From a virus (taxonomy: Duplodnaviria > Heunggongvirae > Uroviricota > Caudoviricetes), in the IMG/VR virus record IMGVR_UViG_2872152978_000011: a DNA stretch of 41,094 bases, one strand, 5' to 3'. Below are positions 16,958 to 27,959 of this stretch, piece after piece; the stretch's first letter is position 1, and each line of letters starts with the position of its first letter. The notes below the pieces were generated by a model, which worked only from the letters and a program-made list of their open reading frames with translations, searched no databases and was not told where the DNA came from. The position numbers were made by a program, and so were the translations under genes.

Positions 16958-17691
16958 TTATGGTGCGCTGACGGTCACCGCAGCCACTGCCACAAACTCT
17001 CCGTCAGAGGTCATGCCCACGATGCTGACACTGCCCTGCTTCACGCCTTTCACCGTGGCCACAAGCCCGCTCAGGGTCACCGAAGCAGTCTGAGGATCTG
17101 ACGAATGCACACTGATCGCTTTGTCACTGGCCCCATCAGGTTTTACTGTAAAGGTCAGTGTGGTGGTTGCTCCCGCTTTGACACTGACAGATGCCGGTGC
17201 CACCGTCAGTCCGGTAACACCCACGGTTTCAGCGCCCTCCTCTGCCAGATACGGACGCCCCACACCGCTGATTTTTACAGTACGGGTCATCACCTCTTTT
17301 GAGGTAATGGTTTTACCCAGTGAACTCATCCAGCCACGGAAAACATCAACCGTACCGTTGGGGTATTTGATACGAAACGCGCAGACTTCACCGGAATCGA
17401 ACAACTGAACCAGTTTTTTCTGCCCGCTGTCACCCGGACGCCAGGCCAGCGTCGCCAAAGTATCACCGACGGATTTCTGCCCCTGGGTTGTCGTTTTCCA
17501 GTCTGCATCTTCATCATCGAGATAAGTGTCATCTTCTGCATCAGCGGTCATTTCGCCAGGTTGCAGATCCTTCACCATCGCAAGACGCAGCCAGTCAGTG
17601 TCCGACAAAGGGTTCGCAAACGCATCGCCCTTGCCGGTGTACATCCAGAACGTCGTTCCCGCACCTTTCGTCTTTGCCAGTGGATTTGGTG
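16958..17691 (-). pseudogene. V: Major tail protein V (body, from codon ~9 to the stop), separated from its 5' end by a 10.2-kb IS nest
   Basis: ...PLAKTKGAGTTFWMYTGKGDAFANPLSDTDWLRLAMVKDL... through a C-terminal Ig-like domain, lambda V-like. The first ~8 codons and the ribosome-binding site lie at 27935-27959, just downstream of the U stop. Confidence 0.9.
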
Positions 17692-17721
17692 GTAAGCGTC
17701 AACGGAGCACCGTATTGACGC

Positions 17722-19314
17722 TTATTTATTGGTGAGTGCTACGTTCCATGGCAGGAGTTCGTCAACACGGTTGGAAGGCCATTCCGGCAGTACGCTCAGG
17801 ATATAGCGCAGATACGCTTCCGGATCGATACCGTTCAGTCGGCAGGTGCCGATCAGCCCGTACAGTAGCGCACCACGCTCTCCACCGTGATCGCTGCCGA
17901 AGAACATAAAGTTTTTCTTTCCGAGACAGACTGCACGAAGCGCTCTTTCCGCGGCATTATTATCCGCCTCAGCCAGACCATCATCACTGAAGTTGCACAA
18001 CGCAACCCAGTGCTTCCTGATATACCGGAACGCATCTCTCAGACGGCATTTTTTCGATAACGTCTGTTCTTTCTCCTGCATCAGCTTATACAGGGAAGTC
18101 AGTAGCGGTTTACTCTGCATTTGCCTGACCGCCAGGCGTTCAGACACCGGCAACCCGCGTATTTCGTGCTCGATGGCGTACAGCTCACCGATTAGTTTCA
18201 GGGCTTCTTCCGCTGTCGCGCTTTTGGTACTGATATATACATCGTGGACTTTGCGCCGCGCATGAGCCCAGCATCCTGCTTCCGTCAACGCGCCGCCTTC
18301 TCGTTCGGCACTGAACAGCCGATCGTAACCATTAAACGCATCTGCCTGCAGGATACCCCGGAAGGGACTAAGGTGCTGCTCCGGATGTTTACCCTGATGG
18401 TCCGGTGAGTAGGCGAACCAGACCGCCGGAGGCTCTGGCGAACCGGCATTCCTGTCATCCCGGACATACGTCCAGATATATCCTGTTTTCGCCTTCTTCC
18501 TGCCCGGTGCCAGCACTTTTACTGGTGTGTCATCAGTGTGAACTTTGCGGCTGTTCATCACATAACGGTACAGAGCATCATTCAGCGGCGTCATTAACTG
18601 GCAGCACGCGTCAACCCAGTTGGAGAGTAATGCACGGCTCAGTTCGACACCCTGACGGGCAAAAATTTCACTCTGACGATACAGTGGCAGGTGTTCGCAG
18701 TATTTTCCCGTTAACACGCGGGCAAGTAACCCCGGGCCCGCGATACCACGCTCTATCGGACGGGATGGTGCCGGTGCTTCAACGATGCAGTCACATTTTG
18801 TACAGGCTTTTTTTACCCGTTCTGTGCGGATCACTTTCAGAGCGCTGCTCACCAGTTCCAGTTGTTCTGCGCTGACTTCCCCCAGATAATCCAGCTCACC
18901 GCCACACTCCGGGCAACAGCTTTCTTCTGGCTCCAGGCGATTTATTTCGCGGGGCAGATGCTCCGGTAACGGGCGACGATGACGAGACTGTCGCAACTGG
19001 CGGGGAACCTGCGGATCGTCTTCCCGCCCACTGTAACGATCACTGTCCTGTTCGCGTTGTTTCAGCAGGGCCTCAGCCTGTTCAACTTCACGACGCAGTT
19101 TTTCAGAACGGGTACCGAACAGCATCCGGCGCAGTTTTTCTATCTGAGCCCGCAGATGTTCTATTTCCCGTTCATCTTCTTCGATCTTTTCTTCGGCGCG
19201 GGCCAGTGCAGAGCGCAGGAAGGCCTCCGTCTCTTCAACCAGACTCAGTTGCTGGTCTTTCTGACGGAGCTGGCATTCCAGTTCTGCAATGCGAATGAGG
19301 TATTTTTGATTCAT
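17722..19314 (-). CDS. IS66-family transposase (orf3/TnpC), 530 aa
   Basis: Zinc-ribbon (CPECGG...CTKCDC) plus DDE-type transposase region typical of IS66 TnpC; identical protein at 23469-25061. Confidence 0.9.
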   Translation of the reverse strand: MNQKYLIRIAELECQLRQKDQQLSLVEETEAFLRSALARAEEKIEEDEREIEHLRAQIEKLRRMLFGTRSEKLRREVEQAEALLKQREQDSDRYSGREDDPQVPRQLRQSRHRRPLPEHLPREINRLEPEESCCPECGGELDYLGEVSAEQLELVSSALKVIRTERVKKACTKCDCIVEAPAPSRPIERGIAGPGLLARVLTGKYCEHLPLYRQSEIFARQGVELSRALLSNWVDACCQLMTPLNDALYRYVMNSRKVHTDDTPVKVLAPGRKKAKTGYIWTYVRDDRNAGSPEPPAVWFAYSPDHQGKHPEQHLSPFRGILQADAFNGYDRLFSAEREGGALTEAGCWAHARRKVHDVYISTKSATAEEALKLIGELYAIEHEIRGLPVSERLAVRQMQSKPLLTSLYKLMQEKEQTLSKKCRLRDAFRYIRKHWVALCNFSDDGLAEADNNAAERALRAVCLGKKNFMFFGSDHGGERGALLYGLIGTCRLNGIDPEAYLRYILSVLPEWPSNRVDELLPWNVALTNK

Positions 19315-19344
19315 GGCCGTTTTTATAATCCGGCCATGACATTT

Positions 19345-19704
19345 TTACAACATTGTCAGTGCGTTAAGGCGGGATGTTTTTGGCTGACGCCAGTCCAGCT
19401 TATCGAGGAGCATTGCCAGTTGCGAGCGGGTAATGGATACCTTGCCGTCACGCACAGCAGGCCAGATAAACTGGCCTTCCTCCAGGCGTCTGGTGAACAG
19501 GCACAGACCATCAGCATCAGCCCACAGGATTTTAATCATGTCACCCCGTCGGCCACGGAAGATGAACAGGTGACCGGAGAAGGGATTATCATTCAGCACA
19601 TGCTGTACCTGTTCACCCAGCCCGTTGAAAGACTTACGCATATCGGTTATCCCAGCAACGAGCCAGATGCGGGTGCCTGACGGGAGTGAGATCATCGTCC
19701 CCAC
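19345..19704 (-). CDS. IS66-family orf2 (TnpB)
   Basis: MISLPSGTRIWLVAGITDMRKSFNGL... typical IS66 TnpB; table start may be a few codons too far upstream. Confidence 0.9.
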   Translation of the reverse strand: MGTMISLPSGTRIWLVAGITDMRKSFNGLGEQVQHVLNDNPFSGHLFIFRGRRGDMIKILWADADGLCLFTRRLEEGQFIWPAVRDGKVSITRSQLAMLLDKLDWRQPKTSRLNALTML

Positions 19705-26034: not shown

Positions 26035-26082
26035 GCCTCTTTATCCTGGTCGACGCTGAATGAGCCTGGTAATATACCCGGT

Positions 26083-27621
26083 ATGAGCAGCTCACTTCCT
26101 GACGATATCAATGCACTGAAACGTCTCCTTGCCGAACAGGAGGCGCTGAACCGTGCCCTGCTGGAAAAGCTGAACGAGCGTGAACGCGAAATAGACCATC
26201 TGCAGGCACAGCTGGATAAGCTGCGCCGGATGAACTTCGGCAGCCGCTCCGAAAAAGTCTCCCGTCGTATCGCACAGATGGAAGCTGACCTGAAGGCACT
26301 TCAGAAAGAAAGTGATACCCTTACCGGTCGGGTTGACGACCCGGCCGTGCAGCGCCCGCTGCGTCAAACCCGCACCCGCAAACCGTTCCCCGAATCACTC
26401 CCCCGCGATGAAAAACGGCTGCTGCCGGCAGCGTCATGCTGCCCGGAATGTGGAGGCTCACTGAGCTATCCGGGTGAGGATGCCGCCGAACAGCTGGAGT
26501 TGATGCGCAGCGTCTTCCGGGTTATCCGGACTGTACGTGAAAAGCATGCCTGTACTCAGTGCGATGCCATCGTGCAGGCCCCCGCGCCTTCACGGCCCAT
26601 CGAGCGGGGTATCGCAGGACCGGGGCTGCTGGCCCGCGTGCTGATCTCAAAGTATGCAGAGCACACCCCGCTGTACCGCCAGTCTGAAATGTACGGCCGC
26701 CAGGGCGTGGAGCTGAGTCGTTCACTGCTGTCGGGCTGGGTGGATGCATGCTGCCGGCTACTGTCACCGCTGGAAGAAGCGCTTCAGGATTATGTGCTGA
26801 CTGACGGTAAGCTCCATGCTGATGACACGCCTGTCCCGGTGCTGTTGCCAGGCAATAAGAAAACGAAGACCGGGCGGTTATGGACCTACGTTCGTGACGA
26901 CCGTAACGCCGGGTCAACGCTGGCGCCGGCGGTGTGGTTCGCTTACAGCCCGGACAGAAAAGGCATCCATCCGCAGACCCATCTTGCGGGGTTCAGTGGT
27001 GTACTGCAGGCGGATGCATACGCCGGGTTCAACGAGCTGTACCGGGATGGCCGGATAACGGAAGCCGCCTGTTGGGCTCACGCCCGCCGTAAAATCCACG
27101 ATGTGCACGTTCGCACCCCGTCAGCCCTGACGGAGGAAGCGCTGAAACGGATCGGCGAACTGTACGCCATCGAGGCAGAGATAAGGGGAATGACGGCGGA
27201 GCAGCGCCTTGCCGAACGTCAGTTGAAAACGAAACCGCTGCTGAAATCCCTGGAAAGCTGGCTGCGTGAAAAGATGAAAACCCTGTCGCGACACTCAGAA
27301 CTGGCGAAAGCGTTCGCATACGCCCTGAACCAGTGGCCGGCGCTGACGTACTATGCAGATGATGGCCGGGCTGAGGCGGACAATAACATCGCTGAAAATG
27401 CGTTGCGGATGGTCAGTCTGGGCCGCAAAAACTACCTGTTCTTCGGTTCGGATCATGGAGGAGAGCGGGGAGCGCTGCTGTACAGCCTGATCGGGACGTG
27501 CAAACTGAACGGAGTGGAGCCAGAAAGCTACCTCCGCTATGTACTTGACGTCATAGCCGACTGGCCGATAAACCGGGTCGGCGAACTGCTCCCCTGGCGC
27601 GTAGCACTGCCGACTGAATAA
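26083..27621 (+). CDS. IS66-family transposase (orf3/TnpC) of element Y, 512 aa
   Basis: CPECGG...CTQCD zinc ribbon plus DDE region; homologous to the other two TnpC proteins. Confidence 0.9.
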
Positions 27622-27666
27622 CACATCCCCGTCAATACGGTTCTTGCTGCACGCTTACATATGAAC

Positions 27667-27846
27667 GGGAAGAACGGTCGGTTCATTTGCCCGGCGTTCA
27701 GCTTTTGCGACATCCTGCGGCCATTCGCGAAGTGATGTGAAGGGAATATCGTTGAGTTCACAGTATTGCTGACGTGTAAGACCACTGGCGCGCCAGGCAG
27801 CAACGTGCTGCCTTTTCTGTTCAATGGTCCATCGGGGTTTTGACAT
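27667..27846 (-). pseudogene. 5' part of orf1 (TnpA-like HTH) of element X, interrupted by element Y
   Basis: MSKPRWTIEQKRQHVAAWRASGLTRQQYCELNDIPFTSLREW...; the reading frame runs into the terminal repeat of Y. Confidence 0.5.
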
Positions 27847-27959
27847 CGATTATCTCCGGTAAGTTGGTGAATGGATGTCGGTAATACTAACTGACCGAAG
27901 ATCCCTGTGAAGATGACTTCCCCGTAACGACACGATTTGGTGTGGTTATTGCCACCTCC

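Follow-up and report, generated by a model that had tools for sequence, protein, structure and literature searches.

We analysed a 41,094-nt stretch of DNA from the IMG/VR virus record IMGVR_UViG_2872152978_000011 (the whole stretch is hereafter the window), in which the lambda-type major tail gene V is split by a nest of four elements of the IS66 family of insertion sequences (IS). The nest very probably arose by serial transposition into a dead lambdoid ipaH prophage, in which ISEc49 (element X) entered V first and copy A, an unnamed IS66-family element, then inserted at its tip. Over 20,687 bp the window is 100.00% identical to the Shigella chromosome CP026840.1 (L028), and from its gene content the source region is read as a decayed lambdoid prophage with ipaH in a Shigella chromosome. 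From 17692 to 27933, the window consists of 10,242 bp of IS66-family sequence throughout, save for a 7-bp spacer, ATTTGGT; an earlier note on this DNA had described the whole 10.2 kb as IS66-family, which stands for everything but the spacer. The features of the nest, with left and right terminal inverted repeats given as IRL and IRR, are as follows.

17683-17690: original left duplication of ISEc49, GATTTGGT
17684-17691, plus strand: left copy of A's 8-bp duplication, ATTTGGTG, whose final G duplicates base 1 of ISEc49
17692-20197, minus strand: copy A, unnamed IS66-family element of 2506 bp, IRR tip at 17692 and IRL tip at 20197
17722-19314, 19345-19704 and 19692-20111, minus strand: tnpC, tnpB and tnpA of copy A, by profile scores
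20198-20205, plus strand: right copy of A's duplication, ATTTGGTG, made up of the spacer ATTTGGT (20198-20204) and the first base of ISEc49 (20205)
20205-27933, minus strand: element X, ISEc49, 2766 bp without its inserts, IRR tip at 20205 and IRL tip at 27933
20205-22585, 25092-25217 and 27659-27933, minus strand: segments of element X
20567-22168 and 22175-22567, minus strand: tnpC and tnpB of element X, its tnpA being interrupted by B and Y
22578-22585 and 25092-25099: duplication of copy B, CCTGAAGA, matching at 8/8 positions
22586-25091, plus strand: copy B, exact reverse complement of A, inside tnpA of ISEc49
25210-25217 and 27659-27666: duplication of element Y, ATATGAAC, matching at 8/8 positions
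25218-27658, plus strand: element Y, ISEc22, 2441 bp, in tnpA of ISEc49, 118 bp from B
27934-27941, plus strand: right duplication of ISEc49, GATTTGGT

From their gene order (tnpA-tnpB-tnpC) and their DDE-type IS66 transposase, all four elements are assigned to the IS66 family. The NCBIfam model transpos_IS66 scored 448, 440 and 467 bits on the nest elements against a cutoff of 180, and IS66_TnpB scored 115-120 bits against a cutoff of 50. IS66-like TnpA was detected in Y and in A, to which B is identical, and the tnpA of X, restored to 110 aa once B and Y were excised, is annotated as TnpA in near-identical copies. Cleaned of B and Y, X matched independent ISEc49-annotated copies at 99.7% over the full 2766 bp in a single piece; identity was at least 98.0% in all 30 records listed with full-length matches, and in 205 genomes the match covers at least 80% of the query. 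Y matched ISEc22-annotated copies at 99.6% over its full 2441 bp. For A and B, just two near-identical relatives were found in complete E. coli genomes (99.6%, the copy in E. coli FDAARGOS_943, and 99.4%), bearing the generic label "IS66 family transposase," and the best named relatives were ISEc43-annotated copies at 93.3%. The isoform rule of ISfinder calls for at least about 95% nucleotide identity to a named element, and A and B, which fall below it, were therefore left unnamed (not ISEc43, ISEc23 or IS682). These scores and near-identity matches bear out the earlier description of four IS66-family elements of three types. In addition, a perfect inverted repeat of 2507 nt pairs 17691-20197 with 22586-25092; with no difference between A and B, it is probable that one was copied recently from the other or that a third copy gave rise to it.

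Elements of the IS66 family have imperfect terminal inverted repeats starting GTAAGC. The terminal repeats read directly from the window were GTAAGCGTAAAC / GTAAGCGTCAAC for A, GTAAGCGTACAG / GTAAGCGTGCAG for Y and GTAAGCTTCC / GTGTCGTTAC for X, whose left end is divergent. The target-site duplication of IS66 is reported as 8 bp (PMC6778807), and duplications of this length, matching at 8/8 positions, were found for A, B and Y; the left copy belonging to X would have been parted from it by the later insertion of A. Copy A (17692-20197) has the ends GTAAGCG...CGCTTAC with ATTTGGTG on either flank, as had been described, and the direct repeats claimed for B and Y within orf1 of X proved perfect, with orf1 being tnpA. 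The same 8-mer, ATTTGGTG, had also been claimed three times at the borders of the elements, and it was found on the plus strand at 17684-17691, 20198-20205 and 27935-27942. Its count is unremarkable (4 in the window against 1.7 expected, with 4 reached in 11 of 100 shuffles); the signal is the position of three copies exactly at element termini, not their number.

The ends of ISEc49 decide how these 8-mers are to be read. Four independent ISEc49 copies carry perfect 8-bp duplications (GAATGAAG, GTTTACTG, GTTAATGC and CTTCATAC) flanking GTAAGC...GACAC, and in the copy with CTTCATAC (L006) a C follows GACAC, which rules out a terminal G for ISEc49. The flanks of these copies thus define ISEc49 as GTAAGCTTCC...GTAACGACAC and place X at 20205-27933 rather than at 20206-27934, where the earlier note had put it, one base off. 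To the left of X stand C, the last base of A, and then ATTTGGT, and to its right stands GATTTGGT. With these boundaries, the targets of X (GATTTGGT) and A (ATTTGGTG) are read as overlapping by 7 bp with an offset of 1 bp, and the middle 8-mer at 20198-20205 is read as A's own duplication, not common to both elements. The proposal of two insertions at exactly the same site, sharing one 8-mer, fails on this offset; the proposal that the second insertion entered the duplication made by the first is supported. A model in which A and X both hit an identical 8-bp target, ATTTGGTG, as a strict hot spot, with X at 20206-27934, would draw on the three copies of this 8-mer at element borders, and the G that follows ...GACAC in three of the four independent ISEc49 copies makes its boundary look plausible. 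With ends TAAGC...GACACG, however, the duplications of three copies (L003, L004 and L005) agree at just 7 of 8 positions, L006 has its C after GACAC together with a perfect CTTCATAC under GT...AC ends, and the IS66-family elements here start GTAAGC. Furthermore, the target 8-mers gathered for these elements show no clear consensus as judged by eye, and a strict sequence hot spot was rejected on this ground. We regard the identical-target model as very improbable. For annotation, the lesson is that an IS boundary wrong by one base alters which target is inferred and in which order the events are placed.

The history that we favor would run as follows. First, ISEc49 would have entered codons 3-5 of tail gene V, duplicating GATTTGGT, with a predicted ancestral V/ISEc49 junction of TTTGCCAGTGGATTTGGTGTAAGCTTCC. 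Second, copy A would have entered at the outer tip of the ISEc49 right inverted repeat, on a staggered target made up of ATTTGGT and the first G of ISEc49, and its IRL would have come to lie 7 bp from the ISEc49 IRR in head-to-tail orientation. Third, the second identical copy, B, and ISEc22 would have entered the tnpA of ISEc49 118 bp apart, duplicating CCTGAAGA and ATATGAAC. In sister strains, host recombination and rearrangement driven by transposases would then have acted on the nest. This history reproduces every base in the window and predicts the G observed at 27934. In the reverse order, A would enter V, duplicating ATTTGGTG, and ISEc49 would then insert beside the tip of A's IRL, on a target formed by A's last base and ATTTGGT; the resulting sequence equals that of the favored history bar one base. 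The reverse order predicts C at 27934, and hence CATTTGGT to the right of ISEc49, whereas G was observed, as part of GATTTGGT at 27934-27941, which argues for ISEc49 first and A second. To be kept, it would require either one more point mutation or a duplication of an atypical 7 bp that leaves the G unexplained, and we consider it unlikely. That X preceded B and Y is indicated by the nesting, unless a loaded ISEc49 moved as a unit, and the sequence does not fix which of A, B and Y came before the others.

Several points weigh against the serial history with ISEc49 first. The order of X and A hangs on a single nucleotide, G rather than C at 27934. An ISEc49 preloaded with B and Y could in principle have entered V as one unit, mobilised in trans. 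No intermediate with V interrupted by ISEc49 only was found in the assemblies searched: V is intact in the contigs that code for the exact U protein, and contigs with the exact truncated V are all derived from the nest; the exact TnpB of X was present only in CP026840.1 and in short contigs. In addition, the names ISEc49 and ISEc22 come from Prokaryotic Genome Annotation Pipeline (PGAP) annotation of near-identical copies and not from ISfinder.

Excision in silico was clean, with a clean target restored at every step. The layout of gene V is as follows.

16958-17691, minus strand: V body (lambda-type major tail gene), codon 6 to stop, including the left copy of A's duplication
27935-27949, minus strand: V 5' end, codons 1-5, by alignment to L011
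27947-27949, minus strand: position of the V start codon, ATA where intact homologues have ATG
27955-27959, minus strand: Shine-Dalgarno sequence GGAGG of V
27960-27962, minus strand: stop codon of U

E. coli 2EC1 has an intact gene, annotated as a 247-aa "phage tail protein," with which the V body is colinear. Once restored, the V-U region gave single-piece alignments to 1,833 E. coli genomes, with an identity of about 91%, and against the intact 2EC1 homologue, which has a single GGATTTGGTGTGG, there are no gaps across the junction; the 60-mers that excision restored at B and at Y have exact matches in intact ISEc49 copies. The split of V was as described in the earlier note, with a 5' piece of about five codons (27935-27949) in place of the approximately eight it had given. 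The expected return of an intact 5' region followed in part: the region became colinear with intact V genes, but its start is ATA rather than ATG, so V would not be fully intact even after the excision of all elements, its start having been lost besides the disruption by IS. V is called as the same 228-aa truncated product in all sister assemblies, and for the identical 228-aa product in Shigella assemblies the Pfam domains Phage_TTP_12 and Big_2 are listed.

The sister assemblies also bear on whether the nest could be an assembly artefact of repeated IS sequence, given that A and B are 2.5-kb exact repeats of a kind poorly handled by short-read assemblers. The same arrangement is present in CP026840.1, the predicted inversion variant is present in a second assembly, junction-specific scars are present in at least seven further assemblies, and all four elements have perfect duplications and excise cleanly; an artefact is a negligible prospect. 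The inversion is that of PSST01000003.1 (L027), in which the 2.4-kb segment between A and B is inverted (within L027 2554-9953, which corresponds to window 17692-25091) and the four flanking 8-mers are swapped exactly as homologous recombination between inverted copies predicts. Since the flanks are swapped there and match in the window, the arrangement in the window is the primary one. In L027, A and B act as an inversion switch over tnpB and tnpC of ISEc49.

Deletions have removed parts of the nest elsewhere. In PSSQ01000002.1 (L023), A is intact and everything is lost from the tip of its IRL, at the junction with the ISEc49 IRR, to a point within IS4, as an adjacent deletion. Six further assemblies (L022, L024, L025, L026, L029 and L031; around 9780-9955) have lost most of the nest by two microhomology deletions. 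The first, joining window positions 28174 and 25233, used the 8-bp CAGGCTGT, which stands in U and again 16 nt within ISEc22, and its product has 16 nt of the ISEc22 end fused to U. The second, joining 25059 and 17724, used the 10-bp TAAGCGTCAA, shared by the IRRs of B and A, and left a perfect 34-bp IRR hairpin, GTAAGCGTCAATACGGTGCTCCGTTGACGCTTAC, between TCTTCAGG and CACCAAAT, with a predicted energy of -19.1 kcal/mol. In L030, the same scar has an IS110-family element inserted in the hairpin (8432-9948). Such scars can be derived only from this nest, so the structure is ancestral in the lineage rather than an assembly artefact. Searches for the nest outside the lineage gave no record covering at least 80% of the whole nest in complete E. 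coli genomes, and 0 hits for the exact V/IS junction in species-representative genomes.

IS110-family elements (ISEc45-annotated in E. coli) were met repeatedly in or adjoining IS66-family terminal sequences, namely at L030 8432-9948, at L045 1290-2423 and 3407-4540, and in hits H62 and H73-H75 of the search with A. This suggests that an IS110-type element may prefer an IS66-family end as its target.

Why A should sit on the very tip of ISEc49 is a separate question. To our knowledge, how IS66-family elements transpose and choose their targets is poorly characterised, and literature searches found nothing on IS66-family target choice or nesting. One possibility is that the stacking is not due to chance: IS66-family transposases would prefer sites beside IS66-family terminal repeats, and A would have been drawn to the ISEc49 IRR, which resembles its own. 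In the window the tip of A's IRL lies 7 bp from the tip of the ISEc49 IRR, and similar junctions were found in three other places. First, in E. coli O104:H4 2009EL-2071 (L032), the IRL of ISEc43 lies 3 bp from the IRR of an ISEc49-like element, and the ISEc43 duplication ATCGTAAG includes 5 bp of that IRR. Second, the metagenome contig L035 has an ISEc23-like end at 7 bp from this same IRR of ISEc49. Third, ISEc23 is inserted 6 bp outside an IRL remnant in E. coli SA53-3 (L044). The IRRs of A and X are alike at 28 of 36 positions, more than the IRL and IRR of A itself (25/36). In addition, three of the four junctions are of the IRL-IRR type, the orientation shown by IS30 (PMC9333248).

On the other side, the spacing varies (3, 7, 7 and 14 bp), and the junction in L035 is IRR-IRR, with an element lacking a matching duplication at its other end. 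The junctions came from searches aimed at finding them and are a tally without a denominator of independent insertions. Only 37 of 5,426 E. coli genomes have A-type IRL-IRR junctions within 570 bp, spread over about five loci, and most of their spacers are 57 to ~560 bp long. In a pattern search, IS66-family ends no more than 12 bp from the ISEc49 IRR gave 0 hits among species representatives and 1 in metagenomes. Furthermore, nests are to be expected in any case, since insertions into other IS are neutral and more likely to survive, and they abound in IS-rich Shigella genomes. A preference for such sites is therefore a tentative idea that we would not favor at present. More specifically, and by analogy with IS30, the transposases of the ISEc23/ISEc43/A clade might recognise the terminal repeats of other IS66-family elements and integrate a few bp from the tip; this heterologous end-targeting, which we hold to be rather doubtful, would, if true, explain how IS66-family elements pile onto one another. 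The tip-on-tip insertion and the three similar junctions are the only point of wider interest here, and they give a testable hypothesis of insertion directed at IS66-family ends. Five records (L033, L034, L036, L038 and L039) seemed to be extended junction matches and were rejected as chance similarity in the flanks. A promoter scan across the junction of the A IRL and the X IRR detected none.

With regard to its surroundings, the window contains IpaH, IS1, IS2, IS4 and P2-type remnants. The gene at 3077-4540 (plus strand) codes for an E3 ubiquitin ligase, a type III secretion effector of the IpaH family, which scored 564 bits where the cutoff is 550, and its presence in a prophage remnant marks the source as Shigella or enteroinvasive E. 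coli. At 33030-33938 (minus strand), a chimeric open reading frame (ORF) matches a P2-type major tail tube protein over residues 3-51 and tagaturonate reductase (UxaB), in its C-terminal part, over residues 40-302, which points to a P2-like prophage remnant fused to a truncated gene of the chromosome. The tail fibre gene J (7310-10788, minus strand) is broken into ORFs 7310-8416 and 8413-10788, and some sister assemblies (L022, L026 and L029, around 19230-20000) additionally have IS1 in this gene.

Nests of the IS66 family are also present elsewhere in E. coli, with the same 8-bp duplications and with insertions into one another's tnpA or tnpC. In E. coli RM14721 (L001, 3002-10521), ISEc23 with the duplication GTATGGAA lies in another ISEc23, with the duplication CAATCTGT, which in turn lies in the tnpA of ISEc22; in L002, IS682 lies within the tnpC of an ISEc49-like element. 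The RM14721 insertions, as those of the window, fall within the tnpA-proximal few hundred bp. The window differs from these nests in combining three element types and in having one insertion on an outer tip, where it shares 7 bp of the older duplication.

The "targeted" transposition of IS911 is an end-targeted insertion like that of IS30. In IS30, a new element integrates directly beside a terminal inverted repeat in an orientation-specific manner, forming an IRL-IRR junction, with strand transfer 2 bp apart and 2-bp duplications (PMC9333248). The A/X junction is likewise IRL-IRR, as is the ISEc43/ISEc49 junction in O104:H4. In contrast to IS30, the window involves another family, two different IS, a variable spacing (3, 7, 7 and 14 bp) and, for A, an ordinary full 8-bp duplication. 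The targeted reaction of IS26 is conservative: two identical copies are joined, and a new duplication is not known to form. IS26 also ends up preferentially adjoining a resident related IS (PMC4196232), yet the window has two unlike elements and an 8-bp duplication.

The nesting of insertion sequences, here in a decaying prophage of Shigella, is a known phenomenon, and this nest is a well-resolved instance of it. The general picture for Shigella is one of pseudogenisation and rearrangement mediated by IS (PMC8072062), and the window fits it, as a lambdoid ipaH prophage remnant riddled with IS1, IS2, IS4 and IS66-family elements, with an inversion and deletions in the sister strains. One locus here displays insertion, nesting, inversion, adjacent deletion, microhomology deletion with a hairpin scar and re-targeting by an IS110-family element, and it offers a clean worked example of how IS dismantle a Shigella prophage. 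Compared with such IS-driven decay, there is no difference in kind; the window adds one well-resolved allelic series.

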